A DNA stretch of 35,039 bases from a virus (lineage: Duplodnaviria > Heunggongvirae > Uroviricota > Caudoviricetes), in the IMG/VR virus record IMGVR_UViG_2660238349_000014. One strand, 5' to 3'. The notes beneath the pieces are model-generated. The model saw only the letters and a list, made by a program, of their open reading frames with translations, was not told the DNA's origin and made no database searches. Positions within the stretch are counted from its first letter, which is position 1. The number at the start of each line of letters is the position of its first letter. Both the position numbers and the translations under genes were made by a program. Shown here piece after piece: positions 5,575 through 35,039 of this stretch.

Positions 5575-5630
5575 GGAGGCAGTATTGCCCCCGGGAAGTA
5601 AGCGCCGATATTAAAGGCGTTTAAGAAGGT

Positions 5631-11747: not shown

Positions 11748-11749
11748 CG

Positions 11750-14849: not shown

Positions 14850-14850
14850 G

Positions 14851-15189: not shown

Positions 15190-15198
15190 AACGCCTCC

Positions 15199-16152: not shown

Positions 16153-16166
16153 GATTTCTCCTTAAA

Positions 16167-17955: not shown

Positions 17956-17957
17956 TG

Positions 17958-18806
17958 TTATCCTCTCAGTTCCTGTTGTGCCAGTGGCTGAAGCGTACCC
18001 TGATAGCGGGCCAGGTCGGGACGGTATGCTGCCCCCGGTGCATAAGACCAGCCGACGTCGGTGGTCACCTTCGTGGTGCCGGTATTAAAGGTGGCCACGT
18101 TCCGCATTTCGCCGGTTTTCTCTGAGACCAGTTTCAGTTCCTGGCCCATGGCAGAGCCGGAGCTGATAACCTTCAGGCCACGGGCACGTACATCCGCCGC
18201 ACTCAGGGCAATCACACTACAGCGGCAGCGCCAGCCGTTCGGCGGGTAAAATGCCTGCCAGAACGGGTCATCCCAGCGCAGCACCAGACCATGCAGCGCC
18301 AGATGGCTCCTGCGGGTATGGCTGTCGTTGATGCCGGTATACATCCAGTACGGCCTGTCGTCGACGTTTTCCATCTGTTCCGCCCAACGACCGGCGCTGT
18401 AGAGTACGGACATATTGGTGCGAAAGATGGTATCGAGCCGCCACGGNCTGCCCTGCTGAATGGTGACCGGCTCACCCGTTACCGGGTCAGTCGTGTCACG
18501 TGGTCCCCACCATCCCTTACGCTTCAGCACCGGCTCCAGCTCCTGCCGGAACCAGCGATCGGTTTTTCCTTCATCGACAGCCTGCTGCAGTGCCCCGCGA
18601 ATATCTTCCAGGATATCCAGGCGGGTCACTTTAGCNACGGTAAAGGCGCGGGCATGGGCCTCCTGCCACATTTCTTCCCAGTCCCAGGTAATCTGATACC
18701 CTTTGGACTTCAGGTAGNTGATTGCCCGCTTCGGGGGAAGCGTCATGCAGTACGCCAGTTCAGCCGTTGTCACGCTCATGCAGACGCCCCCAGATATTTG
18801 NCACAA
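17958..18806 (-). CDS. head morphogenesis protein (Mu F-like)
   Basis: 282 aa. The annotated 5' end overlaps the portal gene by 47 bp, so the true start is probably an internal Met (near 18779 or 18746). Confidence 0.6.
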   Translation of the reverse strand: MXQISGGVCMSVTTAELAYCMTLPPKRAIXYLKSKGYQITWDWEEMWQEAHARAFTXAKVTRLDILEDIRGALQQAVDEGKTDRWFRQELEPVLKRKGWWGPRDTTDPVTGEPVTIQQGXPWRLDTIFRTNMSVLYSAGRWAEQMENVDDRPYWMYTGINDSHTRRSHLALHGLVLRWDDPFWQAFYPPNGWRCRCSVIALSAADVRARGLKVISSGSAMGQELKLVSEKTGEMRNVATFNTGTTKVTTDVGWSYAPGAAYRPDLARYQGTLQPLAQQELRG

Positions 18807-20256: not shown

Positions 20257-21851
20257 CAGAATCCCTCCAGCATACGGGCCGCCTGACGACGACGGCGTGA
20301 GCTTGCCTTCACCGGCCCTTTGTTAATTTCACGGCTGGCGAAATACGCCAGCGCCAGTGCGATGGCTGAATCCCCGTGGCGTTTACCACCNTCAGCCTTT
20401 GCTTTTGAGCGTTGCTCCGGNACGCGGGGGACACCGTTCACCACCTGAACGGCCCGCAGGTCATCCAGTGTGTCTTCATCCTTTGGTAAGTCCACCAGGT
20501 TACCGTCTTCCAGTGCAGCTTTGACCGGAGGCATATGCTCCCGGTACCAGCCTTCGGTTGGCATCACCTGCTGAACCCGGCTGGAGCCGTAGCGCTGCAT
20601 GGCGTATTCAGCCAGATAGGCACCATTACCACGGGCATCAAACGCTGCACCCAGCAGACCGGGCAGGCCATCCATCAGATACCAGGTGATTTGCTCCTGC
20701 TGTCTGAACGGCACGTTACGCAGCTCCAGTACGAATGGCACGCGTCGTACCAGGTTCTTCTCCTGCAGCAGGGGATAGTCCACCGACAAATCACCGCTAC
20801 GGCCAAAGTCGCGCCCCAGGAAAGAGCGGGCATCAGTGGGGAGTGCCTCCAGCAAGGGTTTCAGATACTCATCAAGCCAGTCCTGCGTCTCGCGGAAGCG
20901 AACCTCATCAGACAGCAGTTCATAACCTTCCTTGCAGGTCAGACGCAATACCGGCGTATCAGCGGACATGCGGGACTCTATCAGGGCACGGGACAGCCAG
21001 GCACCGCCACCGTTGGCCGGAATACAGTCAAGCTCTTCGGATGCGCCGGCACCGTAGAATTTGTACACCGATGCCATCCAGGCTTGCTCGGATGCCTCCG
21101 ACCATTCCTTCCCGGTGCGCAGACAGACGCGCCGGAACAGCCCCTCAGATACGGCTTCCCGGAAAGTGATGCGATGTATGCTGCCTCCCTGACGTCCGGC
21201 ACGGATATCCCCGATAAGCGTATTGAACGGATTGTCGTCACCGTCATGGGTGGAGATAACGCGTACCTTTCCCCCCCAGATAAGCATCGCCAGCGCCGCT
21301 TTCAGCAGTTCGTCCAGTTGCTCATGGAACGCCGCTTCGTCGATAACAATAATACCCTGACGGCCACGCAGGTTAGACGGGCGGCTGGAGAGCGCAACAA
21401 TACGAAAGCCGGAGTCAGGAAATTTGATGGTGTAAGTCTTGATGTGTTTGTCGTCGTCGTCCTCTTCCCAGAATCCTTCTTCAATTTCACTGGCCGCATA
21501 GTTGAATGCCCGTGCCCACATCGCACACGCCTGAATGTATTCGACGGTCATGTCCTGGTTATAAGCGATGTAATACACATTCATCCCGCCTGCTGGCGCA
21601 GAAGAGGCGGCGGTCAGTACGTTATCGGATGCCTCAGCCCATGTAATACCGGTACGACGGCTCTTTTCTATCACCTTAAGCGGAGAGGTGTCTGCCACCC
21701 AGCGCTGCTGGTAAGGCAACAGAACGGGAGGGGCATCCAGCGCCGAGGTATCAGGCAAAACGGGAGCAAGGTTATTCCTCCCGTCCATGGGACTCATCCC
21801 TTCGGGGCCGCCGCCAGCGGCGTTTAAAATCACTCCGGATGATTTTGTCAT
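20256..21851 (-). CDS. terminase large subunit (Mu gp28-like)
   Basis: 531 aa, between the small terminase-like gene and the portal. Confidence 0.75.
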   Translation of the reverse strand: MTKSSGVILNAAGGGPEGMSPMDGRNNLAPVLPDTSALDAPPVLLPYQQRWVADTSPLKVIEKSRRTGITWAEASDNVLTAASSAPAGGMNVYYIAYNQDMTVEYIQACAMWARAFNYAASEIEEGFWEEDDDDKHIKTYTIKFPDSGFRIVALSSRPSNLRGRQGIIVIDEAAFHEQLDELLKAALAMLIWGGKVRVISTHDGDDNPFNTLIGDIRAGRQGGSIHRITFREAVSEGLFRRVCLRTGKEWSEASEQAWMASVYKFYGAGASEELDCIPANGGGAWLSRALIESRMSADTPVLRLTCKEGYELLSDEVRFRETQDWLDEYLKPLLEALPTDARSFLGRDFGRSGDLSVDYPLLQEKNLVRRVPFVLELRNVPFRQQEQITWYLMDGLPGLLGAAFDARGNGAYLAEYAMQRYGSSRVQQVMPTEGWYREHMPPVKAALEDGNLVDLPKDEDTLDDLRAVQVVNGVPRXPEQRSKAKAXGGKRHGDSAIALALAYFASREINKGPVKASSRRRRQAARMLEGF

Positions 21852-22393
21852 GTGGCAATCCCCAGAATCTCGCGACGAAGCGCCTGTACTGCGTCGCTTG
21901 ACAGTCCCCCCTTACGGGCAATTTTCTCGGCGTTGCTGGCTGCCTGCTGCGCTCTGGCCCGTACTTCAGACTGGAACTTTTTGAGGTTGACGGACGCGCG
22001 GGACAGCGTAGCCACATTCTTCGCCACCTTCGACAGCAGGGCCACGCGTTCTTTAGGATCGACTTCGCCTTCTTCCGCCTCCTGCAACTGGACAATACTC
22101 TCGAACAGCTCGGTCTGAATAAGGGCTATCACAGCCTCCGAACGCGCATCCTGATCGTCTGCTGCGCCTTCGGTCAGCATGCGGGCCGCTTCTGTTGCCG
22201 CACGGATAGCACCATAGCGGCGCTCAATCTTCTGTCCATAGCGATGGATAGCGGATTTGCTGATGACGTACCCCCGCTCACGCAGCAGGGACTCCAGCTC
22301 GTTATACCCGCTGAAGCCGGATTCAGTCAGCGCCCGTTCAAGCCAGCGGCGCACGTCTTCCGGCAGCTTTTCTATTGTGCTGCGTCTGGCCAT
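21848..22393 (-). CDS. terminase small subunit-like protein (Mu gp27-like)
   Basis: 181 aa, helical and charged, 4-bp overlap with the large terminase start. Confidence 0.55.
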   Translation of the reverse strand: MARRSTIEKLPEDVRRWLERALTESGFSGYNELESLLRERGYVISKSAIHRYGQKIERRYGAIRAATEAARMLTEGAADDQDARSEAVIALIQTELFESIVQLQEAEEGEVDPKERVALLSKVAKNVATLSRASVNLKKFQSEVRARAQQAASNAEKIARKGGLSSDAVQALRREILGIAT

Positions 22394-22704
22394 TATTCAC
22401 TCCAGTACTTTTCCGGGCGGGCAATACCCGGACCACATTCCACGGTGTATTCCACCAGGTCTACGCCGAGGCGGGTCAGGTCAGCAAACCAGTCGCCAGA
22501 AGGTTTTTTCTCCAGATCAACCATTTTACGGTCAGCCAGATAATCCAGTTCGCGGCGCAGTTCCAGCGGTGTGGTGTCCGGGTAGATGGCACGGGACACA
22601 TCCAGCAGCAGCGTCTCGCTGGCGGTGTAAGGGCGGGTCTTGTTCAGGGCAACCAGCAGACTCCAGCGCAGGGATTCGCGGCGTACCCGGGTAATATCGA
22701 CCAT
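22393..22704 (-). CDS. hypothetical protein (Mu gp26 position)
   Basis: 103 aa, coupled to both neighbours. Confidence 0.4.
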   Translation of the reverse strand: MVDITRVRRESLRWSLLVALNKTRPYTASETLLLDVSRAIYPDTTPLELRRELDYLADRKMVDLEKKPSGDWFADLTRLGVDLVEYTVECGPGIARPEKYWSE

Positions 22705-23030
22705 TATTGACCTCCGGTATTGCGGTACTGCTGTACCACTTCCAGTTTGTTATAAAGCGCGTCCAGTTTGGCCTCAATGACTGTCTGGCCACGGATATAA
22801 TCCTCTCGACGGACATAATTCAGCGGTAAATCCGCTTTAAATCGCATAAATTCTTTTTCCAGCTCGCCCCAGTTGGAGGCGGATTGTTGCAGGGCCTGTT
22901 CAAGGGAGGCGAATCGTGCCGCCTGGCGTTCTTCTGTTTTACTGAACAACCATTTGGCGAGCCCTCCCACAAACCCCATGAAGGTGAGCAGAAAACTCAC
23001 CACCGTCCAGAATTCAACCTGCAGTGTCAT
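22704..23030 (-). CDS. membrane-anchored protein (Mu gp25 position)
   Basis: 108 aa with an N-terminal hydrophobic helix (FWTVVSFLLTFMGFVGGLAKWLF) followed by a charged helical region. Confidence 0.45.
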   Translation of the reverse strand: MTLQVEFWTVVSFLLTFMGFVGGLAKWLFSKTEERQAARFASLEQALQQSASNWGELEKEFMRFKADLPLNYVRREDYIRGQTVIEAKLDALYNKLEVVQQYRNTGGQ

Positions 23031-23677
23031 TTCTGTAATCCTTCCCGTTCATCCAGTAACGCGTTTATCTGGTTCCGCCAGCGACGACATTGTCCTGCGT
23101 TGTCGATGATGTTGGCGAGAACGTCACGCTGGGAGACACCCGAATCGCGTAACCGGGTGTCAGTGGTTTCAGGTTGCCCGGTCGCTGTGCCAGAGCGGGT
23201 GCCAGCGGCGGCAACTGAGTCTGAATGACCGGTGTCGACGGATGCGTTGTCATATCCGAGTGCGGCGTTGTACTGGCGCACGAAACCGCGAGTAAACACG
23301 CACTCAATGGGATGGCTCTTACCTTTTTCATCAATCCAGCGCTGTGTGACATCGTTAATTTGCCCCTGTAGTTGTTTATTCCGGCTCTCCAGTTGAGCAA
23401 TCTGCTCAAGATAACCGGCTTCAGCCCGCTGCCCGGCGGCCACCTGCTCCTGATACCGTCTGGCCCAGGCCCGCAGCGCAGCATTCTCAAGCGTTGCCTG
23501 CTCCGTTTTGTACGNGTCAAATGCTGACTGCAACTGACTGAGCGCGGTATCACCGTCACGCTTTGCAGAGTCATGACCACTTCTGTATCCCATGGCATAC
23601 AGGCCGACCAGAAAGGCATTGATAAGAATGGCCAGCAGAATGCCGCGCCACGGCAGCTTTTTAANCAGATGCCACAC
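23027..23677 (-). CDS. i-spanin (Rz-like)
   Basis: Start set to GTG at 23677, preceded by GGGGAGG. N-terminal TM helix (WRGILLAILINAFLVGLYAM) then a Gln/Ala/Glu-rich coiled region. Immediately after the endolysin. Confidence 0.55.
   Translation of the reverse strand: MWHLXKKLPWRGILLAILINAFLVGLYAMGYRSGHDSAKRDGDTALSQLQSAFDXYKTEQATLENAALRAWARRYQEQVAAGQRAEAGYLEQIAQLESRNKQLQGQINDVTQRWIDEKGKSHPIECVFTRGFVRQYNAALGYDNASVDTGHSDSVAAAGTRSGTATGQPETTDTRLRDSGVSQRDVLANIIDNAGQCRRWRNQINALLDEREGLQK
23065..23331 (-). CDS. o-spanin (Rz1-like), embedded in the i-spanin gene in another frame
   Basis: 88 aa: MKKVRAIPLSACLLAVSC... lipoprotein-type signal with a lipobox-like AVSC, then a proline-rich mature region. 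Confidence 0.5.
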   Translation of the reverse strand: MKKVRAIPLSACLLAVSCASTTPHSDMTTHPSTPVIQTQLPPLAPALAQRPGNLKPLTPGYAIRVSPSVTFSPTSSTTQDNVVAGGTR

Positions 23678-24401
23678 AACTGCTGCCTCCCCATGTGAGA
23701 TATCGCGGTGCCAGTTCGCGCAGGATGCGCTGCGGATAATGGCGGTTCTCCCGCCAGCTGGCCGCATTGCGTCCGGCATTCACCGTGGCGACATGTCCGA
23801 ACCAGCGGGTGCTGTCCAGCCCCTGCTGCGAGGCCAGCCGTTTGTCCCGCTGTACCCAGCCCAGACCACCGTTATAGCCTGACAGCGTCATGGCCATACG
23901 CTCGCAGTCACTGGCGGCGCTGACGCGTTGCCACAGCCAGCGGTCATAGCTGACCAGCGCCCGGATGGCCCACGCCGGATTAAACGGTTCACGGCTGTTA
24001 AGCCCCGGCATCAGCTGACTTATCCAGTCAGCGGTGGTGGGCATAAACTGCGCCAGTCCCTGAGCGCCAGCCGGCGAGACCGCATCAGGTCGCCAGCCGC
24101 TTTCCTGATGCAGCTGCGCGGCGAAGTCGGCCACCGGCGCAGACAGTCCCCATTCAAGCCGGGCATTACGGATCACATCATCGCGATACTGCAGCGCAAC
24201 CTGCGGAGGCTGCGCTGCGCATGCCTGGCTGAAAAAGCCGCCACACCAGAGCAACATTGCGACAAAGAATACCCATGCCATATGAACCAGAAAGGTCCCG
24301 GCGCGGACTGACAGGCGTTCGGTTCTGATGAAGACCCGAAAGGCTTCGAAAGCCAGTTTCAGGGACATGCATACAATCCAGGTGATCTGCGGCCAGTTCA
24401 T
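23661..24401 (-). CDS. endolysin, lytic transglycosylase (SLT domain) with N-terminal signal or SAR sequence
   Basis: SLT-type motif QESGWRPDAVSPAGAQGLAQFMPTTA. Hydrophobic N-terminal segment MAWVFFVAMLLWCGGFF. True start may be that internal Met. Confidence 0.75.
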   Translation of the reverse strand: MNWPQITWIVCMSLKLAFEAFRVFIRTERLSVRAGTFLVHMAWVFFVAMLLWCGGFFSQACAAQPPQVALQYRDDVIRNARLEWGLSAPVADFAAQLHQESGWRPDAVSPAGAQGLAQFMPTTADWISQLMPGLNSREPFNPAWAIRALVSYDRWLWQRVSAASDCERMAMTLSGYNGGLGWVQRDKRLASQQGLDSTRWFGHVATVNAGRNAASWRENRHYPQRILRELAPRYLTWGGSSCVASX

Positions 24402-24403
24402 GA

Positions 24404-24753
24404 TTAAAGCCCCATCGCAACAGCCAGACAGACAGCTGCAACAATCAGTGCACGGCGGATTAACGCAGCAGAAAATACAAGGTGAAGGCCGGTCTGCACA
24501 GGGAAACGCCCTTCAGCCATCAGCCTGTCNTCATGTTTCAGGTACTGACCGGGACGGGCTTTGGGGAAGAGCGAACGGTCAAGCCAGTANCCCAGCACTG
24601 CTGCCAGCGTGATGAGTGCCAGCTTGTAGATCACAACAGGCAACTGCTGTGGCGAGACCAGAGCGATGNTGCCCAGCAACAGCACTGAGGTCAGCAGCCA
24701 GCCGCTGAGGCGAGGTTTTTTAACAGGGGGAATGAATTTTTTCAGGTTTTTCA
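24404..24753 (-). CDS. holin (putative, three TM helices)
   Basis: Start trimmed to the ATG at 24753, preceded by GAGGAGA. 116 aa with three hydrophobic helices, immediately upstream of the endolysin. Confidence 0.55.
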
Positions 24754-24868
24754 TGTGTGTCTCCTCGTTTGGTGGAGACAGCATCACAAATGTGGCGGGA
24801 TACGGATTTTAAACAGCGTTAATAGTGAAGATGTAAACGTGCACTGCATGATGGCTTTGAAAGAACGA

Positions 24869-24896
24869 CCAGCCCGGTACCCGAACACCGGGCTGG
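24869..24896. other. GC-rich hairpin in the late-operon / methyltransferase intergenic region
   Basis: CCAGCCCGGT, 8-nt loop, ACCGGGCTGG: a perfect 10-bp stem. No clear U-tract on the plus side, weak T-rich run on the minus side. Confidence 0.4.
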
Positions 24897-25001
24897 CCAT
24901 CGCCCCACAGGAATGCGCTGTGAGCCGACCAAGGTTCAGTCAGTCTCGCGAGACCAGACTAGCCTGCCATATTTTTTATAATTGTAAAAGGCTTACAGAT
25001 T

Positions 25002-25772
25002 ATGAAAATGCAGACATTACCCATCGTTCCATGGATTGGTGGCAAACGCCGCCTTGCAAAACACATCCTGCCGCTGTTTCCGGCGCATGAATGTTATGTG
25101 GAGCCGTTTTGTGGGGCAGCAGCGCTCTATTTTCTTAAGGTACCCGGCAAGATCGAAGTCATTAATGATATCAACGGTGAGCTGGTGAACCTGTATCGGG
25201 TGGTAAAACATCATCTGGAAGAATTTGTACGCCAGTTCAAATGGGCGCTGGTCAGCCGGCAGATCTACAAATGGCTGCAGATCACCCCGGAAGAAACACT
25301 GACGGATATCCAGCGTGCAGCACGGTTCTACTACCTTCAGAAGCAGGCGTTTGGGGGCAAGGTGGCGGAGCACAGCTTTGGTACCTCCACCATATCCCCG
25401 CCACGCTTCAACCTGCTGCGTATTGAAGAAGAACTGTCAGCGGCACACCTGCGGCTTTCCAGAACGGTCATAGAACACATGGACTGGCAACAGTGCATAG
25501 AACGATATGATCGCCCGCATACGTTGTTCTACTGTGACCCTCCATACTGGGGAACGGAAGGTTATGGTGTGGAGTTCGGACTAGAAAATTATGATCATAT
25601 GGCAGATTTAGCACGCAGGATCAAAGGGAAGATGATTATATCGGTGAACGATATCCCGGAAATGCGGCAGGCATTCAACGGTCTAAATATTCAGTCGGTT
25701 GATATCAGCTACAACCTCAAGATCACTGGCAAATCCAGTCGCAAGAAGGAACTCATTATCCTCAACTTTTGA
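25002..25772 (+). CDS. DNA adenine methyltransferase (Dam-type), no restriction partner visible
   Basis: 256 aa with a glycine-rich SAM-binding motif (PFCGAAALYF) and the catalytic DPPY motif (FYCDPPYWG). Confidence 0.8.
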   Translation: MKMQTLPIVPWIGGKRRLAKHILPLFPAHECYVEPFCGAAALYFLKVPGKIEVINDINGELVNLYRVVKHHLEEFVRQFKWALVSRQIYKWLQITPEETLTDIQRAARFYYLQKQAFGGKVAEHSFGTSTISPPRFNLLRIEEELSAAHLRLSRTVIEHMDWQQCIERYDRPHTLFYCDPPYWGTEGYGVEFGLENYDHMADLARRIKGKMIISVNDIPEMRQAFNGLNIQSVDISYNLKITGKSSRKKELIILNF

Positions 25773-26967
25773 CCGAATAGTAAGACTTCATGCAGTGAAT
25801 CAAGTACTGCATGAAGTCAAGGGCTGGTTTTGTGTACCAAAAATAAACAGTGATAGCGGTAATAATTCCCATAACTAGAACACCACGTATAATCCAGAAC
25901 GTACGTTTCTGCGTGTCTAGTCGCGCAGAAATACTGCTAAATACACCAGCCACGTCATCTTTAATGAAGGAATATTCCTTATTAATCTGTTTTTCTTTGT
26001 ATTCAATTTCTTCGCCTAAGGCCTTTATAGATTGCATCTGGTTCGAAAGTGCCAGCCAGATTAACGTTGCAGCAAAAATGCATCCCAGAAGAATTATTGT
26101 GTTTGTTATCCCTTGGCCTGACCATTTCGTAGCCACTTTGAATTGGGTAGCTACGATAACAGAGGCAACAGGAATGCCAAGTATATGGTTCTGGATATCT
26201 GAAAACGCTTTGTGGATTTTACCCATTTCTTCGACTTTTGCAGCACGCAGTTGATCCATTACTTTGTCATAAGAGAATCCAGAAGAGTAGATACGATACC
26301 CTTTCAGAAACTTTTCATGCAGACGCTGAATATTGTCCAGTAAATAAGCGAATACTAGAGGTGAATCAATTCCATCACTAACTGCTTGAATACTTTCAAT
26401 CAGAATATCTAGCTTCTGATCCTTATGGGTATCATCATTGAAACAAGCTATAAGGTTATCAAGATACTCCCTTTGCAAATTTTGTACATTTTCTGCAGCG
26501 AAGTGCGGTAATAGCTTGATAACTTCTTTTTTCAGAAAAACTAACTGACAAGTTGAGTTATCAAAGTAGGCCGCGGCCTCTTTTAGCAGGTTAACGAACT
26601 CGAGAATCTTCCGGTAGTTGCTGATGAAAACGGGGATATCTTCATCATCATTACGAAATTTTGTTTCTAGGATGAAGTAATTAGCTGGCTCAAGGCACTG
26701 ATGCTTTGGAGCATTTAGCAATTTTTCATGGGTGGAAAACACAAGTCCCAGTCCACTCCGTGGTGACGTCACACGTAGGATGATCGTGTTACCTGGAGCG
26801 ATAGTGCCTGTATCAATAGAAAGACCATATTCACGAGGATCATCAAGCAAAGTATCAACCAGATCACAATCGGACTGATCTAAGAGCAACAGCGAACCGA
26901 CACGAAACCCCTCTTGGAATTCCATACGACGATACAGAGCTGTCAGCATCTCAAATGAAATCGCCAC
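25762..26967 (-). CDS. membrane protein with a large cytoplasmic N-domain and two C-terminal TM helices; partner of the NdpA-like gene
   Basis: 401 aa. Hydrophobic helices ITNTIILLGCIFAATLIWLALS and TFWIIRGVLVMGIITAITVYFWY. GTG start 2 bp after the upstream stop. AT-richer than the phage backbone. Confidence 0.6.
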   Translation of the reverse strand: MAISFEMLTALYRRMEFQEGFRVGSLLLLDQSDCDLVDTLLDDPREYGLSIDTGTIAPGNTIILRVTSPRSGLGLVFSTHEKLLNAPKHQCLEPANYFILETKFRNDDEDIPVFISNYRKILEFVNLLKEAAAYFDNSTCQLVFLKKEVIKLLPHFAAENVQNLQREYLDNLIACFNDDTHKDQKLDILIESIQAVSDGIDSPLVFAYLLDNIQRLHEKFLKGYRIYSSGFSYDKVMDQLRAAKVEEMGKIHKAFSDIQNHILGIPVASVIVATQFKVATKWSGQGITNTIILLGCIFAATLIWLALSNQMQSIKALGEEIEYKEKQINKEYSFIKDDVAGVFSSISARLDTQKRTFWIIRGVLVMGIITAITVYFWYTKPALDFMQYLIHCMKSYYSVKS

Positions 26968-26969
26968 GA

Positions 26970-27977
26970 TTAAACCTCAGTCATCCACATTTCCCTAAAT
27001 TCTTCAGGTACATTACGTAGGGTGATAATATTTGTTTCCGGATCATAATCAATATAGCCTTCAGTTTTCCCTTCCCGGTCAAACTTAAGTTCCCAATATT
27101 TAGACTTGCCTTTAAAAGATACCAGAGCCCGAATGACTCGACCATCAGGAACGAAGCCATCCGATAACTCCAACTCTTCAGCAGCAAGTTTACCAGATAA
27201 CTCCTCGGGAGCCTGGGGCCAAATGGCATTAACAAGGGTTTCAAGACTAAGTGGTTCACCAGCCTTACTTAGTGCATGTAAGTGTTCAAACGCACTCTTA
27301 AGAAATGCATCTTTTTCAGCGCCGTCAAGTCCTTTCTCTGCCGCAAATGCTTTTAAAACGTCACGTAACTTTTCAGACTCTCGTTTGGCGATTAAGACAT
27401 CATTACAGCCTAGGAACTGTTTAAAATAGTTTGAAACATTACCTTGCCCCTTAAGAAAACTGATATAGCGCTCTGCGCCACTTTCCCACGCGGTTAAGTC
27501 AATGCGCCCAGCCATACGCAGCTTAGCAATATCAAGATAGGTACTATCTTGGATGTTAAAATCATCTGTGACAGTGGACCCAATGGTAGCGCTTACAATA
27601 GCTATCAACAGGTGTTCATTGTGTCCTATCACGATATTTGCAAAAAGAACATAACCACCAGTAGCCATGTTTTCTCGCTGAGAACGTTCCGTCAGGTGAT
27701 GCATCATTCGGCAGGAACTTTGGTAGAAATCATCAACACCTTCGAGAAAGTCCCCAGCCATTCGTTCCATAGGATAGTTATCCGTATCGCCTTCAAAATA
27801 GCCATAACCTTTACCTGTGCGTCCTGCATATTTTGCACAAATATCGTTTATAAGGCGCTGAGAGGCTTCAGTAACTAGACCTTCTTCAGGACTCAATCTC
27901 TCAGAAGCGTCTCCATTTTGTTGTTTGTCTAAAATGTGAACTACAACGTGTTTAACTTCAATGGTCTGCTCAGACAT
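26970..27977 (-). CDS. NdpA/YejK-like nucleoid-associated protein homologue
   Basis: 335 aa. Motifs GGYVLF, LLIAIVS, YLDI, RIDLTAWE and RYISFLKG match, from memory, conserved blocks of E. coli YejK (also ~335 aa). Strong RBS AAGGTGGA before the ATG at 27977. Confidence 0.6.
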   Translation of the reverse strand: MSEQTIEVKHVVVHILDKQQNGDASERLSPEEGLVTEASQRLINDICAKYAGRTGKGYGYFEGDTDNYPMERMAGDFLEGVDDFYQSSCRMMHHLTERSQRENMATGGYVLFANIVIGHNEHLLIAIVSATIGSTVTDDFNIQDSTYLDIAKLRMAGRIDLTAWESGAERYISFLKGQGNVSNYFKQFLGCNDVLIAKRESEKLRDVLKAFAAEKGLDGAEKDAFLKSAFEHLHALSKAGEPLSLETLVNAIWPQAPEELSGKLAAEELELSDGFVPDGRVIRALVSFKGKSKYWELKFDREGKTEGYIDYDPETNIITLRNVPEEFREMWMTEV

Positions 27978-28047
27978 TGGCTATCCACCTTATTTTTTAT
28001 TGCTTAATGGCAAATAATTTCTGCTATATGTTCTCGTTAGGAACACA

Positions 28048-28455
28048 TTAACCCACATTTTTTAACCGCTCAATCGTTGCGGATAATTCCTTCAGTTGTT
28101 TTTCCATCTCAATCACACGCTGTTTTTCTTCAGCGCCTCGCATGAGATCTCGCCGAACCTCAGGATCTAACTGGTTTAGAAGTTCAAGCATTTTAAGGTC
28201 TGACGGGCTGAATTGATGTTGTGTTGGTACAGCAACAATTTCTTTAGATGGAATATGTTCTTTACCGGTAAGTAGCCAATCGATTGATACACCCAAATGG
28301 GTACTTAGCGCAACAAGAGCCTCTGCGTTTGGTTCTCTCTCTCCACGCAAATAGTTTTGAAGTGAGCGATATGGAATTTTTGATAAGTCAGATAATGCCT
28401 TTATTGTCATGCCATTAGCATCCATCACTTCACGCAATCTCTCTTTTGTACTCAT
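28048..28455 (-). CDS. CI-like prophage repressor (XRE-type HTH, no peptidase domain)
   Basis: Start set to the Met of MSTKERLREVMDANGMTIKALSDLSKIPYRSLQNYL... Classic HTH followed by a coiled C-terminus. Divergent from the ner-like gene. Confidence 0.7.
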   Translation of the reverse strand: MSTKERLREVMDANGMTIKALSDLSKIPYRSLQNYLRGEREPNAEALVALSTHLGVSIDWLLTGKEHIPSKEIVAVPTQHQFSPSDLKMLELLNQLDPEVRRDLMRGAEEKQRVIEMEKQLKELSATIERLKNVG

Positions 28456-28471
28456 TTGAACATATCTCAAT

Positions 28472-28499
28472 TTGACACACTCATTTGGGTGTGTACAAT
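28472..28499 (+). promoter_or_regulatory. sigma70-like early promoter overlapped by an operator-like inverted repeat
   Basis: TTGACA (28472..28477), 16-bp spacer, TACAAT (28494..28499), about 45 bp upstream of the ner-like ATG. Inverted repeat ACACAC (28475..28480) / GTGTGT (28489..28494). Confidence 0.6.
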
Positions 28500-28543
28500 A
28501 GACCCAATAGAGTACATCATAACCTAACAGGAACACGGTGCAT

Positions 28544-28768
28544 ATGAACAAACAACAAGTTCGGGCACGGCTGGTTGAACGAGGCAGTAGCTTGCGCCAG
28601 TTCGCGCTTAACGCGGGCTATGAACCACGAACAGTCACCCAGGCAGTCAGTCGCTGGGCTGGTAAAAGTGAACTACCTCGCGGTCGTTTGACTTATCGGA
28701 TTTTGCGAGATCTATCGGTTGCAATAGGTAAAGAAGTTACCCCCGGTATCCTTAAGGAGGCGTCATGA
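28544..28768 (+). CDS. Ner-like / Cro-like DNA-binding protein
   Basis: About 75 aa. SLRQFALNAGYEPRTVTQAVSRW resembles the Mu Ner family pattern. First gene of the rightward early operon, divergent from the repressor. Confidence 0.6.
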   Translation: MNKQQVRARLVERGSSLRQFALNAGYEPRTVTQAVSRWAGKSELPRGRLTYRILRDLSVAIGKEVTPGILKEAS

Positions 28769-29073
28769 ATAAACCAAATACATCAAGCTCAGGTATCCGT
28801 ATTTTGCGCGTTCTTAAGGCCTTACGTGGCCACGCTTTGAACGGTGTTTCTAACGGGGAACTAGCGGTTGCACTGCACGAATCACCGGCAAACATCAACC
28901 GGGCACTTAACACGCTCATTGAAGAAGGGTTGGCTCTGAAACTAGAAAACGGGCGTTTCGCACCAGGCATCCAGTTGCTGCAGATCGCCATGGCCCACAG
29001 TAACGAGATGGCACGTGCACAGGATCGCATTAACGAAATCAACCAACGTGTTATTTCAGGTAGTCGTTTGTAA
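28765..29073 (+). CDS. putative winged-helix DNA-binding protein
   Basis: 102 aa. NGELAVALHESPANINRALNTLIEEGLA looks like a helix-turn-helix. 4-bp overlap with the ner-like stop. Confidence 0.4.
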   Translation: MNKPNTSSSGIRILRVLKALRGHALNGVSNGELAVALHESPANINRALNTLIEEGLALKLENGRFAPGIQLLQIAMAHSNEMARAQDRINEINQRVISGSRL

Positions 29074-29083
29074 GGAGTAATCA

Positions 29084-29995
29084 ATGGGACGCACCAAATC
29101 ACCGGTTAGCACTGAACTGAACGTCGAGGTACCGCTGTCGGATGATCTCAATGTCAGTCTAAACGCCATGACACAGCATCGCATGGAAATCATGCAACAG
29201 TTCGGCGATGGTCTGCCTTATGAGCGCGATCGTGTTGTCCATGAGGCACGCTTTTATATGGCACAGAGCGCTGAGGCCATGCTGGAGGCAGGTAAGCGGC
29301 TGATAATCCTTAAGGAAAATGAACCACACGGGGAGTTTATAAAGATTCTTGAAAGTGAGTTGGGGCTGGCATACCGGACATCTGTGAGAATGATGCAAGC
29401 ATCGACAAAATACTTATCCCCGGCGCTGAAACCAAATGTGCCAACGTTGGCACATTTGGGAAAAGCCAAACTTTTCGAATTAATGACAGAAGACGACGAA
29501 GAGCTTGCCGAACTGGCCGACGGCGGCACAGTTGCCGGCCTGACGCTTGACGACGTTGATCGCATGTCAGTACGCGAACTTCGCCAGGCCCTGCGCGAAG
29601 CGCGCGAAACCAACGCAGCACAACAGCGCGTACTCGCCGATAAAAATGAAAAAATTGATTCTCTCTCTACCAGACTGGAAAAGAAATCCCGTATTCAGCT
29701 GCCTGAGCCTGATGAGGAGGTTAAGAAGCTGCGGGCGGAAGTGACAGCATTAGCGGTTGAGGCGGAATCTGCNATCGCCGTTCGACTGTCCAGCGCTTTT
29801 GAGACNCTGTGCGCATATTGTGCTGAAAACATGATTGATACCCCCAGAGACTTCATGGCAGGNCTGGTCTGTCAACTGGAAAGCACAGCGCGTAGCCTGC
29901 GCTCCACATTTGACCTGCCGGANGAGCCAACAGGCNATGNCGCGCCTTCATGGCTGACTGAGCCGACGCCACAGATTAACGGGCTGGAGGCATAA
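29084..29995 (+). CDS. hypothetical early protein
   Basis: 303 aa, charged and helical, several ambiguous codons. No motif recognised. Confidence 0.4.
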   Translation: MGRTKSPVSTELNVEVPLSDDLNVSLNAMTQHRMEIMQQFGDGLPYERDRVVHEARFYMAQSAEAMLEAGKRLIILKENEPHGEFIKILESELGLAYRTSVRMMQASTKYLSPALKPNVPTLAHLGKAKLFELMTEDDEELAELADGGTVAGLTLDDVDRMSVRELRQALREARETNAAQQRVLADKNEKIDSLSTRLEKKSRIQLPEPDEEVKKLRAEVTALAVEAESXIAVRLSSAFEXLCAYCAENMIDTPRDFMAXLVCQLESTARSLRSTFDLPXEPTGXXAPSWLTEPTPQINGLEA

Positions 29996-29998
29996 CCA

Positions 29999-31768
29999 AT
30001 GAATGCTGCCCTGACTGAACGACTGGTTTATGTCGCCCGCGCGGCACGTGACGCGGGGCATGGTAAACGCGGTGCAATATACGACGCTGCCTGTGCTGAA
30101 CTTGGCATGTCCCGCGCCACTCTGCTGCGCAGGCTGAAGGAGGTCTCTGTGACTGATAAACGCAAAAAACGCGCNGATGCCGGNCGCAGCGCCCTGACCC
30201 GCGACGAAGCCGCGCTGATATCTGCCACACTGCGTGAGGCCACCCGCAAGAACGGTAANCGNCTCTATTCCATCGCAGATGCAGTGGAAACCCTGCGGGC
30301 TAACGGCTTTATCACCGCAGGCAGAACAGATGAAACCACCGGTGAGTTTTTCCCGTTGTCTGAAGATGCCATCAGCCGTGCNCTGCGTAACTATGGCCTG
30401 CACCCGGAACAACTGGATGCNCCTGCACCGCATACCGAAGTGGCCAGTCTGCANCCCAATCATGTCTGGCAGATTGACGCCTCACTCTGCACGCTTTACT
30501 ACCTGAGCAATGGACATAAAGGGCTGCAGGTGATGGACAGCGCGAAGTTCTACAAGAACAAGCCCGCTAACCTTGCCCGTATCGCCAGTGACCGCGTGTG
30601 GAGTTACGAGATTACCGACCATGCCAGCGGCTGGATTTACGTTGAGTATGTGACGGGNGCGGAATCNGGTGAGAACCTGTGTTCTGTGCTTATCAACGCC
30701 ATGCAGGAGCGTGGCGGCGCAGACGTGCTGCACGGCGTGCCNAAAATACTCTATCTCGACCCCGGCTCGGCAAACACCGCGGGTATGACGAAAAACATGT
30801 GNCGCTCACTGGGCATCGACCTGATAGCGCACAAGCCGCATAACGCCCGCGCCACCGGACAGGTGGAAAAGGCGCGNGACATTATCGAACGCAAGCTGGA
30901 GCCGGGTCTGAAGTTCCGGCCGGTTCACAGTCTGGAAGAACTCAANGCGCTGGCCGCGAAATGGCGCAGCCACTTTAACGCCACGGCTGTTCACAGCCGC
31001 CACGGTAAAACCCGCACGGATATCTGGCTGAAGATTACTGCTGAGCAGCTGAAAAAAGCGCCTTCCGTTGAGGTATGTCGTGAACTGGCTGTGGCGGCAC
31101 CAGAACTCCGCAAAGTCACGCCAAAACTTCGTGTCTCGTTCCGGGGCACTGAATTTGACGTATCAACGGTACCGGGCGTACTGGTCGGTGAAAAACTGAT
31201 GATTACCCGTAACCCGTGGCGCAGCGATGTGGCACAGGTGGTTCTGACCGGTGAGGACGGCCACGAGACGTTCTTCCTGGTCGAAGANGTCAGAAAGAAC
31301 GAGTTTGGCTTTGCTGAAGGCGCGGCGGTATTTGGCGAAAGTTACAAAGCCCTGCCGGAAACCCCGGCGCAGATGGCGGCAAAAGAAACCGAAGNGCTGG
31401 TCACCGGTACAGACAACGCCGCAGATGCAGCTGCCGCACGCAAGGCGAAGGCGCTGCCGTTCGGCGGGCGGCTTGACCCNTATAAACATATTGATGACGC
31501 CACACTTCCGGCCTATATGCCGAAGCGAGGTCAGGCCTCTGACGTACGCGGGCCGCGCACTGAACAACGTCCCATGACTCATGTGGAGGCCGCGAAAGCC
31601 CTGCGCGNNAAGTTCAGCGCCNACGGCCTTACCTGGACGCCGGAACATTACCGCCAGTTAACGGCACAGTANCCGGACGGCGTACCGGAAGCNGCACTGG
31701 ATGAAGTCATGGCCACGCTGACCACGCCGGCCCGCAGCAGCGTTATCAGCATTGTTAACGGCAACTNA
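29999..31768 (+). CDS. DDE transposase (Mu A-like)
   Basis: Integrase-type core around HVWQIDAS... and YLDPGSANTAGMT. End set at the in-frame tna codon at 31766..31768, assumed to be a stop masked by n, since a good RBS and ATG for the next gene follow. The listed ORF runs to 31855. Confidence 0.65.
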
Positions 31769-31778: not shown

Positions 31779-32945
31779 ATGCTGGTACTGAAGCAGCAAC
31801 TGAAAGAGGCCCGTATTCCACAGGCGGTGGTGGCGAGAGCTGTCGATGTTTCTGAGGCCACGCTGGCCCAGATTGTGAATCATAACGCGTGGCCCCGCAC
31901 CAGCCCCGGAGAAGTGCGCCGGCGTCTTGCGTCCTGGCTGGAAAGTCAGGGGATTGATACANCGAAGAGTTTTGATGCTGTACAGGGCGCGGCCACGCCC
32001 CGTACAGCGGGTACCACAGATAAAACGAGCCTCAGTGAGGAAGAGAATATGTTACTCAAAAAACAGGTGTTATTTCCAGCAACCAAAAAAGCGTTTGGTC
32101 TTTTCCGTGACCCGTTCGCCGACGAAGCCATGCAGGGTTCTGATGATGTGTTCACCACTCCGGACATTCGCTACGTGCGTGAGGCGCTGTACCAGACAGC
32201 CCGTCATGGTGGGTTTATGGCCGTCATCGGTGAGTCCGGTGCGGGTAAATCCACGCTGCGCCGTGACCTGACTGAACGTATCAACCGCGAGAATGCGCCG
32301 GTGATTGTTATCGAGCCATACATCATCGCTATGGAAGACAACGATGTGAAAGGGAAAACCCTGAAGGCAGCAGCGATTGCCGAAGCCATTATCAGTACCA
32401 TCGCACCACTGGAAAGCATCAGACGCAGTCAGGACGCCCGCTTTCGCCAGCTGCATCGCGTCCTGAAAGACAGCCGCCAGGCGGGGTTCAGCCACGTTCT
32501 GGTGATTGAGGAAGCCCACAGTCTGCCCGTTCCGACACTGAAACACCTCAAACGCTTTTTTGAGCTGGAGTCCGGTTTCAAAAAACTGCTGTCCATCGTG
32601 CTGATTGGCCAGCCGGAACTGGCGACAAAACTGTCTGAACGCAATATGGAAGTCCGTGAAGTCGTTCAGCGCTGTGAGGTGGTCGAACTTCTGCCTCTCG
32701 ACAATAACCTTGAAGAGTTTCTGACGTTCAAACTGCAACGGGCCGGTAAACAACTGACGGACATTATGGACGCCGGCGCAGTGGATGCCATACGTGCCCG
32801 CCTGAGCAATCCGGGAAGTCATCGTAAAAACAGGGTCAGCCTGCTGTATCCGCTGGCCGTCAGTAACCTGGTGATAGCCGCCATGAATCTGGCCGCTGAA
32901 ATCGGGGTTCCACAGGTCAACGCTGACGTTGTCAAAGGGGTTTAA
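31779..32945 (+). CDS. transposition ATPase (Mu B-like AAA+ protein)
   Basis: Walker A GESGAGKST. Start at the ATG at 31779, preceded by AGGAGGGA. Immediately downstream of the transposase. Confidence 0.65.
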   Translation: MLVLKQQLKEARIPQAVVARAVDVSEATLAQIVNHNAWPRTSPGEVRRRLASWLESQGIDTXKSFDAVQGAATPRTAGTTDKTSLSEEENMLLKKQVLFPATKKAFGLFRDPFADEAMQGSDDVFTTPDIRYVREALYQTARHGGFMAVIGESGAGKSTLRRDLTERINRENAPVIVIEPYIIAMEDNDVKGKTLKAAAIAEAIISTIAPLESIRRSQDARFRQLHRVLKDSRQAGFSHVLVIEEAHSLPVPTLKHLKRFFELESGFKKLLSIVLIGQPELATKLSERNMEVREVVQRCEVVELLPLDNNLEEFLTFKLQRAGKQLTDIMDAGAVDAIRARLSNPGSHRKNRVSLLYPLAVSNLVIAAMNLAAEIGVPQVNADVVKGV

Positions 32946-32947: not shown

Positions 32948-33217
32948 ATGAAATCCATCACAGGTATCAACCAGCAAATCAGCAAAGTGCAGTCAGCCAT
33001 TATGGCGCTTATGGCAACGAACACGGATGTACAAAGCATCACCATCAGGGGCAATAAACCTGTCATCCGCGTTTCCCGGAGTGCGCATTGCATGCGCATG
33101 CTTGAACAGGGGAAAGCCAGTTATCTGTATACCGGTCATGACCACAGGGGACATTTCCGTCAGGGCGTTTTCGAACTGCACGGCTGTCGCGTCGTGTGGC
33201 CGGAATCTTTGTGGTAA
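32948..33217 (+). CDS. hypothetical protein
   Basis: 89 aa, starts 3 bp after the ATPase stop. Confidence 0.35.
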   Translation: MKSITGINQQISKVQSAIMALMATNTDVQSITIRGNKPVIRVSRSAHCMRMLEQGKASYLYTGHDHRGHFRQGVFELHGCRVVWPESLW

Positions 33218-33244
33218 TCAGCACAACCGGAGAAATCATAAAAT

Positions 33245-33775
33245 ATGGCAAAAAGTACAAAAGGGGCAAAACGTATCAAGTCCGCAGCGGCACTCTGGGT
33301 ACCGGGGACACGCGAAGAGGTCATTGAGGGCATCAGACTGCTCGGTGACGCACAACGTGAACTGGTCAGGGCTGAAACAGAAATGAATGACGCCATTGGC
33401 GATATCACCGCACGTTATGCCCCGCTCACCGAGAGCCTGAAAAAACGCATGTCAGAACTGCAGTCCGGTATCCAGACATGGTGTGAGGCACACCGTGATG
33501 AACTGACCGGCAACGGGAAGGTGAAGTTCGCTAACCTCACCACCGGCGAGGTGCAATGGCGAAACCGTCCGCCATCAGTCAGTATCCGTGGAGCGGATAA
33601 TGTTATTGAACTACTGAGACGTCTGGGGCTTGAGCGCTTTATTCGTGTAAAAGAGGAAATAAATAAAGATGCCATTCTGAATGAAAAAGAGGCCGTGAAA
33701 AATATTCCCGGCATTACCATAAAAAGTGATATTGAGGATTTTTCAATAATTCCTTTTGAGCAGGATGTGCAGTAA
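33245..33775 (+). CDS. gam: Gam-like host nuclease inhibitor
   Basis: 176 aa. Size, sequence character and position after the A/B genes match the Mu Gam family. Confidence 0.7.
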   Translation: MAKSTKGAKRIKSAAALWVPGTREEVIEGIRLLGDAQRELVRAETEMNDAIGDITARYAPLTESLKKRMSELQSGIQTWCEAHRDELTGNGKVKFANLTTGEVQWRNRPPSVSIRGADNVIELLRRLGLERFIRVKEEINKDAILNEKEAVKNIPGITIKSDIEDFSIIPFEQDVQ

Positions 33776-33872
33776 ACACACCACGTTAATTATTTAATAA
33801 AAACATTTTCTTTTTTATTCCGGCGTCAGCGCCGTGGGCTTCTGCACGCCGGAAACAGAGGAGAATTAAATT

Positions 33873-34067
33873 ATGATATTTAAATGTATTCAGTGCGAGA
33901 GGGATATAACAGCCCTGCGTTTTCACAGCGCCATCGCCGTGATGTCCGGTAAATACCACGTACCTGCAGTACGCGTCACCCTGGTCTGTCCGTACTGCAG
34001 TCAGCATTTTTCGGCAGATGTGCCCGTTATGGAATTCTCCCGCCCTGACAGGGAGGAAGCGCAATGA
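33873..34067 (+). CDS. small zinc-ribbon protein (possibly Com-like)
   Basis: 64 aa with two Cys pairs, CIQC and CPYC. 4-bp overlap with the next gene. Confidence 0.4.
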   Translation: MIFKCIQCERDITALRFHSAIAVMSGKYHVPAVRVTLVCPYCSQHFSADVPVMEFSRPDREEAQ

Positions 34068-34336
34068 TTACCCCACAGGAAGCACATCAGCGCACCCGCG
34101 CCCTTGTTGAACGGTATCTCAACGAGTGTGAATGCCGTGACCTCACCGATATCATGTGCGCCCTGACGGCGTTAATCAGCATGGCCACGCAGGCCATTGT
34201 GGCGACTAACGGAAAGGAGGCCGCCCTGCAGATACTAGTGAACACACTCACCCACGCGGCAGAGCACGAGGTGCCGTACCGGATGGAAATCACTGCAGAA
34301 GGCGACCTGCACATCATTGTTGACCGGAAGCACTGA
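34064..34336 (+). CDS. hypothetical protein
   Basis: 90 aa, coupled to the zinc-ribbon gene. Confidence 0.35.
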   Translation: MITPQEAHQRTRALVERYLNECECRDLTDIMCALTALISMATQAIVATNGKEAALQILVNTLTHAAEHEVPYRMEITAEGDLHIIVDRKH

Positions 34337-34345
34337 GGGCGCGGC

Positions 34346-34642
34346 ATGACACGGAACACCATACTCACCCGCACCGCCCTCTACCGTCTGGCCCTGCAGC
34401 GTTTCGGGCCGGACGCACAGGCCCTGAAACTGACAGAAGAGGCCGCTGAACTGGCGGCCAGTGCTGCCCGCAATCTGAACGGACAGGGCAGCGAAAGCGA
34501 CCTCGCGGCAGAGCTGGCAGACGTGGAAATCATGACAGAGCAATTGCGCCTTCAGGGGATGGACCGGCTGATTGACTTCCACAAACAGAAAAAACTGGAA
34601 CGTCTGGCTGCACGACTGGGCGTGATTTACACGAACGAGTAA
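34346..34642 (+). CDS. MazG-like nucleotide pyrophosphohydrolase domain protein (tentative)
   Basis: 98 aa with EEAAELAASA and AAELADVEIMTEQL, reminiscent of the MazG/HisE fold EExxEL...ELADV signature. Confidence 0.4.
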   Translation: MTRNTILTRTALYRLALQRFGPDAQALKLTEEAAELAASAARNLNGQGSESDLAAELADVEIMTEQLRLQGMDRLIDFHKQKKLERLAARLGVIYTNE

Positions 34643-34656
34643 CCGGGAGGCATTCA

Positions 34657-34872
34657 ATGGCTGACATACTCAGGGAAATCACCGCATGGATACTGATTCT
34701 TACTGGCCTGGCGACATGCCTCAGTGCGGGGGCAGCCCTGGCTGCCCTGCTGATGCACATAACAACACAGTGGTTATGGGAAAAGCTTAAAGCAGCATAC
34801 AGCCTGAAAGAGCTGTCCGACGCTGTCCGGGCATGGAAACGGCAGAAAAATACCGGAGATACAGAACAATGA
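34657..34872 (+). CDS. small membrane protein
   Basis: 71 aa with one hydrophobic helix (ITAWILILTGLATCLSAGAALAALLM). Confidence 0.35.
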   Translation: MADILREITAWILILTGLATCLSAGAALAALLMHITTQWLWEKLKAAYSLKELSDAVRAWKRQKNTGDTEQ

Positions 34873-35039
34873 CAGACCAGAATAAACACATTGAGAAACT
34901 GAAAAAGTTGCTGGCGCTGGCCGCATCCGGCAACCCGCACGAGGCCGCTCTGGCACTGCGCCGAGCCCGTAAACTGATGGATGTTCACGGCATCACACAT
35001 TCCGACATTGCTATGAGTGATATTGATGAAACCATCAGT
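34869..35039 (+). CDS. hypothetical protein, truncated by the window edge
   Basis: ATG at 34869 overlapping the previous stop. Open to the end of the window (MTDQNKHIEKLKKLLALAASGNPHEAALALRRARKLMDVHG...). Confidence 0.3.
   Translation, partial: MTDQNKHIEKLKKLLALAASGNPHEAALALRRARKLMDVHGITHSDIAMSDIDETIS

Follow-up and report, generated by a model that had tools for sequence, protein, structure and literature searches.

The stretch of DNA analysed here, 35,039 nt long and hereafter called the window (IMG/VR record IMGVR_UViG_2660238349_000014), carries the genes of a transposable prophage arranged in two arms that are read away from each other. Strand calls were taken from the list of open reading frames (ORFs), and gene families were assigned from Pfam and PHROG scans, complemented by PADLOC. 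The long ORFs between positions 1505 and 24787 all lie on the minus strand, and those from 28538 to the end of the window all lie on the plus strand. Four genes sit between the two arms: a Dam methylase gene on the plus strand and, on the minus strand, genes for a 401-amino-acid (401-aa) protein, an NA37 protein and a repressor. A sequence-only reading of this DNA had already described late genes pointing leftward and ner, transposase, B-like ATPase and gam genes pointing rightward, with the repressor and accessory genes in between. The ORF list, the Pfam matches and tblastn bear this description out, with one exception: three tail-fibre cassettes, at 72-1498, are read from the plus strand and belong to an invertible segment. 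The features on which the layout rests are the following.

1505..24754, minus strand: late arm, with P2-like tail and baseplate, tape measure, sheath, tube, Mu-like head, packaging and lysis genes (Pfam; 28 genes collinear with phage BcepMu)
25002..25772, plus strand: Dam-type N6-adenine DNA methyltransferase (Pfam MethyltransfD12, E=7e-28; PADLOC MTase_II, E=4e-115)
25762..26967, minus strand: cargo gene 2, the 401-aa protein, Pag2B-like (phrog_5023; weak KwaA match)
26970..27977, minus strand: cargo gene 1, nucleoid-associated protein of the YejK/NA37 type, Pag2A-like (Pfam NA37, E=1e-80; PDB 9be2 YejK, E=7e-30)
28048..28455, minus strand: lysogeny repressor of the HTH_3/cI type (Pfam HTH_3 and Phage_CI_repr; PHROG repressor families)
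28456..28543: divergent switch region, the 88-bp spacer separating the repressor gene from the ner-like gene
28544..28768, plus strand: ner-like small helix-turn-helix (HTH) protein, first early gene (HTH_35, E=0.004, below the Pfam cut-off)
28765-29073, plus strand: IclR-type winged-HTH (wHTH) regulator (Pfam; homologous to BcepMu gp12 and B3 ORF14)
29084-29995, plus strand: DUF3102 protein (Pfam; homologous to BcepMu gp10 and B3 ORF13)
29999..31768, plus strand: DDE (rve) transposase of the BcepMu/B3 type (phrog_310, E=1e-135)
31779..32945, plus strand: B-like AAA+ transposition ATPase, annotated 'ExeA' (AAA_22, E=3e-20; phrog_296; 59% identical to BcepMu gp08)
32948..35039, plus strand: rest of the early operon, with small ORFs, gam and the first part of a DUF2786 gene that runs past the window end (from the annotation of the complete Escherichia coli prophage KE50)
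33245-33775, plus strand: Mu-type gam (Phage_Mu_Gam, E=5.5e-41; 63% identical to Mu Gam)

The relationships of these genes point to BcepMu rather than to Mu. The 46 proteins of the window were run by tblastn against BcepMu, B3 and Mu. For twenty-eight late-arm proteins the matches follow the same order along BcepMu 11552-33248, and four early-arm proteins (wHTH, DUF3102, transposase and B-like protein) have theirs at BcepMu 7959-3460 on the opposite strand; the matches of the early arm and of the lysis and packaging genes in B3 agree with this picture. In the BcepMu and B3 records the bottom strand reads Mor-GemA-...-B-A-...-HTH from one end, and the top strand reads repressor, accessory genes, holin, lysin, Rz, terminase, head and tail, an annotated order that is the exact reverse complement of the order in the window. 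Mu was matched by only seven of the 46 proteins, namely the terminase, portal, F, G, Gam and two fibre/baseplate fragments, with no tblastn match there for the transposase or the B-like protein. The transposase is 66-69% identical to BcepMu gp09 and 56% identical to B3 ORF12, and BLASTP against MuA gave no alignment better than E=1.4. Canonical Mu, against which the window had originally been measured, is therefore the wrong reference, even if the statement that early and late genes are co-directional in Mu is correct: in the annotated Mu record, the repressor alone is opposed.

The BcepMu genome has been described as two gene clusters with lysogeny control at their interface, followed by a lysis cassette and a P2-like tail, and its transposase as a member of the Tn552-IS1604 family unrelated to MuA (PMC2771037). 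A divergent layout is also described in PMC5977238, which speaks of the early operon of B3 as 'inverted'. The window has the two divergent clusters with lysogeny control at the interface, a Tn552/IS1604-like rve transposase (not MuA) with an ExeA-like AAA+ partner, and Mu-like head and packaging genes joined to a P2-like contractile tail (Portal_Mu, Phage_Mu_Gp27 and sheath domains). The remaining hallmarks of the group, TG...CA termini, many insertion sites and a short target duplication, were found in four complete relatives, the window itself containing neither end. The features of Muvirus, that is, co-directional genes with only the repressor opposed, and MuA and MuB, are absent from it.

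We conclude, with a probability of about 0.95, that the window represents 35 kb from the interior of one E. coli BcepMu-type (Bcepmuvirus-like) transposable prophage, which would measure about 37-38 kb in full and whose arms diverge from a central control region. Divergence of early and late arms is the normal, already-known layout of BcepMu/B3-type transposable phages, their textbook arrangement since 2004, and its finding here is ordinary. Of the explanations originally put forward, a natural divergent architecture is the one that holds: the same gene order is found in BcepMu, B3, PhiKM and KP12 and in the four complete E. coli prophages, and comparison with related prophages shows the same divergent layout throughout. 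The closest phage records by megablast (three matches) are Escherichia phage PhiKM (94%), Klebsiella phage KP12 (87%) and Phi06_2974 B. PhiKM, classified as a Bcepmuvirus, and KP12 are the two annotated records among them, and both have the back-to-back layout of the window. BcepMu and B3, and not Mu, are the proper references for back-to-back prophages of this kind, whose layout should not be taken as a flag of rearrangement or fusion.

The likeness to BcepMu extends well beyond orientation. Both have Mor and GemA at the outer end of the early arm, an rve transposase and an ExeA-like B protein (66-69% and 59% identical, respectively), a late arm that begins with a cassette of holin, SLT lysin and Rz, terminase, portal and head genes of the Mu-like kind, a P2-like tail (tail genes 40-77% identical), TG...CA termini, and the same dyad motif preceding the genes for holin, protease and gpW. 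The E. coli element differs in having a Mu-type gam, a Gin-like invertase with multi-cassette invertible fibres (BcepMu is reported to have no inversion system; PMC2771037, PMC2628397) and a Dam methylase; the cargo that follows the repressor is different as well, and the repressor and ner-like proteins are barely similar or not similar at all. The gam of the window is 63% identical to Mu Gam, and tblastn at E<=1e-3 gave no match to it in BcepMu, a sign that phages of the Mu and BcepMu types have undergone mosaic exchange in enterobacteria. B3 (Beetrevirus) shares the divergent layout, the transposase (56% identical), B protein (54%), DUF3102 protein (52%) and wHTH regulator (56%), and the order of the lysis and terminase genes; unlike the element in the window, it is a siphovirus with an unrelated tail module. 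With Mu (Muvirus) the window shares the lifestyle of replicative transposition, a Mu-like terminase (49% identical), portal and F and G head genes, members of the Gam, GemA and Mor families, an invertible tail-fibre segment, and a repressor divergent from a ner-like first early gene. In contrast to the divergent arms of the window, all Mu genes except the repressor are co-directional, and MuA and MuB are unrelated in sequence to the transposition proteins described here.

Whether both arms belong to one element can be judged from relatives whose ends lie in finished sequence. The central 4.8 kb (24300-29100) are 99.9% identical and contiguous in finished E. coli chromosomes, and 635 of 5426 complete E. 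coli genomes have a match to the central region, at scattered coordinates, some of them carrying two or three related copies. The element is thus common, about 12% of complete E. coli genomes matching its central or early region. In the MS20655 prophage, positions 2408-35039 of the window are covered in one contiguous stretch that takes in both arms. Ends were read in four complete prophages lying at different loci.

KE50: inserted in fliC, at about codon 15; 6-bp duplication CTCAGA
MS20655: inserted in yccM, next to torS; 6-bp duplication GGTCGT
FAM21845: inserted in a group II intron reverse-transcriptase gene; 6-bp duplication CCTTCA
WS3294A: inserted in the aes-gsk spacer; 6-bp duplication TTTTCC
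End coordinates in the relatives' sequences: 5278/43284 (L003, KE50), 5445/42554 (L004), 4443/41402 (L005) and about 5778/42618 (L017, WS3294A)

In each of the four, the two halves of the host locus flank the entire element, which measures 36.8-38.0 kb. All four have termini of the form 5'-TGAT...ATCA-3' with imperfect terminal inverted repeats and GnGATAAATG sites spaced by about 22 bp. The Gin-like invertase adjoining the fibre cassettes is found just inside one end, and the Mor-family gene that closes the early operon lies inside the other. Mu-type TG...CA ends, which the sequence-only reading had proposed to look for, therefore do exist, outside both arms; the duplication that accompanies them is 6 bp long and not the 5 bp expected. 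Five base pairs is the duplication made by Mu. A pattern built from the relatives' ends gave one chance-level match in the window, inside the portal gene, and its two-site form gave none; in particular, no phage end lies in the 24.8-28.5 kb interval, where one was to be expected had two elements met there. Since no end motif falls in it, the window must be wholly internal to one element. By its offset to MS20655 and KE50, the right end would lie 1.9-2.9 kb to the right of 35039, and the left end beyond position 1. The prophages examined show that the element inserts into genes, fliC, yccM and the group II intron reverse-transcriptase gene being disrupted in these examples, and TGAT...ATCA termini, GnGATAAATG repeats and a 6-bp duplication provide a useful signature of its ends.

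These data bear directly on the proposal that two mobile elements abut at 24.8-28.5 kb, the left one a remnant with late genes and the right one a transposable element. The arms do differ in orientation, the G+C content (GC) drops to 41-47% solely across 25-29 kb, compared with 55-60% elsewhere, and the accessory genes at the junction vary among strains. However, in each of four independent insertions both arms lie together between the host junctions and the 6-bp duplications, and no end motif occurs in the window; the junction order of holin, slot, repressor and ner-like gene recurs in BcepMu, B3, PhiKM and KP12; and each function is present only once. Only the cargo cassette is low in GC, and this cassette is also seen in unrelated contexts. 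We consider a fusion of two elements to have almost no chance of being correct. The location of ends and duplications outside both arms, together with the lack of an end motif in the window, is also what leads us to reject a recent large inversion, one that would have flipped one arm of a co-directional Mu-like prophage in this genome. It is true that the early operon is inverted relative to that of Mu and D3112, and the word is used for B3 in PMC5977238. Yet Burkholderia, Pseudomonas, Klebsiella and E. coli phages with transposases no more than 56-69% identical have the arrangement in common, each of the four complete E. coli prophages shows it at its own locus, the ends are placed to match it, with Mor beside one and the invertase beside the other, and no inverted repeats flank either arm within the window. 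A recent event is accordingly very improbable. A layout shared across distant phages, with ends placed accordingly, means that any inversion is ancestral to the lineage; as an ancient, lineage-wide difference from Mu/D3112-type phages, the inversion suggested earlier can be retained.

One might still ask whether the junction is an artefact of assembly, arising from a chimeric contig or from two prophage copies merged into a consensus. There are 61 isolated N bases in the window, clustered at 16.3-18.8 kb (16311-18826) and 29.8-32.0 kb (29773-31962), and two or three related copies do occur in some E. coli genomes; the clusters may in fact reflect a consensus over two related prophage copies. 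No N, however, falls in 24670-29772, a span that covers the junction and the central region, finished chromosomes match the interval at 99.9% identity over 4.8 kb, and both arms are contiguous in MS20655. The probability of an artefactual junction is negligible, and we return to the single BcepMu-type prophage in what follows. One of the N bases, at 31767, sits in a stop codon (31766-31768) recognized from collinearity with KE50. The transposase ORF should therefore end at 31768 and not at 31855, giving a protein of 589 aa, as in relatives, instead of 618.

The control region between the arms is compact. The repressor gene starts at ATG 28455, a start read from the sequence with which the RefSeq annotation of a 99.9% identical relative agrees. 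It is co-directional with the late arm, occupies the same position as BcepMu gp17 and B3 ORF18, and encodes a protein weakly similar to gp17. Within the spacer that separates it from the ner-like gene, a promoter scan found a rightward near-consensus sigma-70 promoter, TTGACA-16-TACAAT, at 28472-28499 on the plus strand (11 of 12 matches). The spacer of this early promoter contains a 20-bp palindrome, ACACACTCATTTGGGTGTGT (28476-28495), of which a degenerate second half-site copy lies 176 bp away, at 28289-28304, within the repressor gene. The palindrome and the second half-site are probable operators, the palindrome overlapping the early promoter. The ner-like protein is 33% identical to Mu Ner over 42 aa (E=5e-4), so that its name is owed to its position, the sequence lending it weak support.

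No Mor/C-type late activator had been recognized originally, and a Pfam scan of the small early ORFs agrees that the window has none. The reason is that the window stops within the early operon, inside the DUF2786 gene. In KE50 the operon continues past this point with DUF2786, three small genes, GemA (PF06252, E=1e-40) and then Mor. The Mor-family protein of KE50 has 132 aa (Pfam PF08765, E=1e-43) and is 56% identical to BcepMu gp01 and 31% identical to Mu Mor. Collinearity with KE50 (L003 coordinate = window + 5380) places its gene at about 36398-36796 in window coordinates, 1.4 kb past the edge; in relatives the distance beyond the right edge is about 1.4-1.8 kb. The same gene is labelled 'positive regulator of late transcription protein C' in PhiKM and 'rdgB' in KP12.

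Candidate targets for such an activator are found in the opposite arm. All four of the late-arm intergenic gaps contain a dyad, TTAAN-N4-NTTAA, then (A/T)ATC and, 20-21 nt later, an invariant A..CTG. The latter box can be read as an nAnnCT -10 hexamer in which the A and T positions that matter most to sigma-70 are retained. Relative to this hexamer, the dyad is centred at -42.5 in three copies and at -43.5 in one. An exact search of the window with the pattern TTAANATC-N20/21-ANNCTG gave four matches, compared with 0.04 expected, all on the late strand and all in late-arm intergenic gaps: 24779-24812, 17312-17345, 11395-11428 and 5580-5614, each on the minus strand. The modules and the first gene they would serve are listed here.

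24404..24754, minus strand: holin, first gene of the late arm (Pfam Holin_2-3, E=2.9e-40; a 351-bp 'putative holin' in KE50), its start most likely at ATG 24754, matching RefSeq relatives
24779..24823, minus strand: candidate Mor-dependent late promoter of the lysis/head operon, with dyad TTAACGCTGTTTAA at 24809-24822 and -10-like GATGCT at 24780-24785, dyad centre at about -42.5
17312..17356, minus strand: second copy of the module, upstream of the protease/scaffold gene (16167-17282)
11395..11439, minus strand: third copy, upstream of the tail assembly and tape-measure genes
5580..5625, minus strand: fourth copy, upstream of the gpW-like baseplate gene (5227-5574)

The same four sites carry the pattern in the complete E. 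coli prophages, in the partial genome record of PhiKM, and in WS3294A, whose immunity region is different. The motif upstream of the holin gene is kept in PhiKM and KP12 despite diverged flanks. In the GC-rich BcepMu genome, CTAAAGCCGATTAAAAGACC occurs upstream of the holin gene and of the protease gene (gp32), and TTTAGCCGGCTTTAATATC upstream of the gpW homologue gp49 (copy at 30773-30791). The strict TTAA-N6-TTAA form was not found in the first 20 kb of B3. These modules are close, in geometry and in number, to the Mor- and C-dependent promoters of Mu, in which a Mor dimer binds a pair of 5-bp inverted repeats inside a 16-bp element centred at -43.5 (PMC4390567) and in which the four C-dependent late promoters have -10 hexamers and no -35 (PMC2582627). 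At the level of sequence pattern, the window modules have the same make-up: a dyad near -43.5, a -10 and no -35. They are candidate Mor-dependent late promoters, and as such may offer a useful signature of BcepMu-type phages. Our first reading took TAAAAT/TAATAT as the late -10. This is disfavoured, the invariant A..CT(G) lying 20-21 nt downstream and the dyad near -43 giving a better fit; TAAAAT/TAATAT may nevertheless be kept as a less well-fitting candidate, chiefly at the 5.6-kb copy.

One can envision the following course of events. The repressor gene lies beside a face-to-face promoter/operator region (28456-28543). From there, the early promoter would drive rightward transcription of the ner-like gene, the two regulators, the transposase, the B-like ATPase, gam, the small genes, GemA and, last, Mor; GemA, Mor and the transposon end would lie beyond the window, with Mor adjoining the end. 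Leftward, on the strand of the repressor, the variable accessory slot comes first, followed by lysis, head and P2-like tail genes up to the other end. As Mor accumulates, it would most likely bind the dyads some 42-43 bp upstream of weak -10s that have no -35, switching on four leftward late units. The start of the first would fall about 20 nt ahead of the holin ATG, within the interval to which the sequence-only reading had drawn attention. Unlike Mu, which has both Mor and C and three transcription phases, these prophages have only one annotated Mor-family gene, which suggests a two-step, early-to-late cascade.

Several observations weigh against this explanation of the window. The window holds neither an end nor the Mor gene, the ends, the duplication and the activator all being read from near-identical relatives. 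The late-promoter and operator assignments come solely from sequence pattern and conservation, and those of the ner-like protein and the repressor are weak by sequence. The -10 of the 5.6-kb copy lies only 6 nt from the annotated ATG, which implies either a leaderless transcript or the use of TAATAT as -10. Finally, a scan for intrinsic terminators on the minus strand, from the cargo to the holin, returned none that was convincing, so that there is no clear terminator between the cargo on the repressor's strand and the lysis genes.

The accessory genes next to the repressor deserve separate comment. Relatives vary at two slots flanking a Dam gene that is present in many of them. In most cases the one after the repressor is filled by a gene for a 175-aa hypothetical protein; the pair of NA37 and 401-aa-type genes occupies it in 17-18 of the 5426 genomes and in the window. 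Here the pair lies directly downstream of the prophage repressor. The NA37 gene has a low GC (41-43%) and is separated by 2 nt from the gene of the 401-aa protein, whose residues 1-260 are acidic (isoelectric point 5.0, net charge -11) and which has three hydrophobic segments at 262-378. For homologues of the 401-aa protein (33-38% identity), an NA37 gene comes first in every case, its stop codon overlapping the start codon of the next gene. Such pairs were seen in a Paraburkholderia island, where an Mrr-type endonuclease is the neighbour, in a Salmonella lambdoid prophage, where they lie between Q and holin, and on a Shewanella contig. An AlphaFold model of the 401-aa protein (pLDDT 81.5) gave no PDB fold match at E<=0.001 in Foldseek, the best being at E 0.3.

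This architecture resembles that of Type II PANGU, a defence system described in a 2026 preprint (10.64898/2026.04.06.716658) as a YejK-like nucleoid-associated protein (NAP) sensor, Pag2A, and an effector, Pag2B, with a C-terminal transmembrane (TM) part and an acidic, DNA-mimicking N-terminal domain. According to the same preprint, PANGU was validated against T4 with an operon from uropathogenic E. coli. The genes in the window likewise form a bicistronic operon with the YejK-like NAP gene first and, second, the gene for a TM protein with an acidic N-terminal domain, and as in PANGU the pair moves between unrelated contexts. They differ in lying directly downstream of a prophage repressor; the word 'prophage' does not occur in the part of the preprint text drawn on here. 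Judged by its architecture, the cargo pair (25762-27977) is probably a Type II PANGU defence system. We also considered Kiwa, which consists of a four-TM KwaA and a KwaB with DUF4868. The KwaA match is weak (E=8e-5) and covers only the C-terminal 130 aa; the partner is NA37, with no KwaB/DUF4868 match, the Kiwa paper mentions neither NA37 nor YejK, and there is no PDB fold match, so that we reject Kiwa. A single-gene defence protein with a YejK domain validated by DefensePredictor, WP_000355468 (391 aa), is different from the 335-aa NA37 protein of the window.

The post-repressor slot thus carries variable cargo that includes a probable NAP-based defence system. It is possible, if somewhat less likely than not, that the slot is a hotspot for defence genes expressed in the lysogen, Type II PANGU among them, and that the four dyads make up the complete late regulon of a single Mor activator, which from its place at the far end of the opposite arm would act as the timer of a two-step cascade unlike the three steps of Mu. 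As annotations of this element, its ends with their 6-bp duplication, the late-promoter module and the probable defence cargo are of use, but none of them is a surprise.

Other variation was seen around the same region. Dam is the only plus-strand gene of the central region; its 3' end overlaps the convergent 401-aa gene by 11 bp, and many relatives have it, though not all. A perfect 13-bp inverted repeat with a 9-nt loop (25784-25796/25806-25818) falls in the last codons of the 401-aa gene. Small genes inserted at fixed slots distinguish the relatives (the central regions of L009, L010 and L011 among them): for example, a DUF2441 gene or two hypothetical genes between holin and dam, and the 175-aa gene or others after the repressor. 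WS3294A is without dam and has a different immunity region; in the late arm, another such difference is a gene of 876 bp that separates gpV from the gpW promoter (WS3294A, L017 36634-37509).

The remaining features of the window belong to the late arm and to the fibre region at its left edge. Scans for tRNA genes and Rfam families gave no matches in the window. The minus-strand Pfam and PHROG matches include tail-fibre assembly, Collar-domain fibres and sheath.

22704-24754, minus strand: lysis cassette
21848-22393, minus strand: terminase small subunit (Phage_Mu_Gp27)
20256-21851, minus strand: terminase large subunit
18760-20256, minus strand: portal (Portal_Mu)
62..3078, both strands: multi-cassette invertible tail-fibre region (Collar and Caudo_TAP domains; one tail-fibre assembly gene)

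The fibre region contains five copies of a repeat of about 240-270 nt, 89-95% identical, three on the plus strand and two on the minus strand. Every copy opens a Collar-domain fibre C-terminus, and in relatives the Gin-like invertase lies just to the left of the cassettes.

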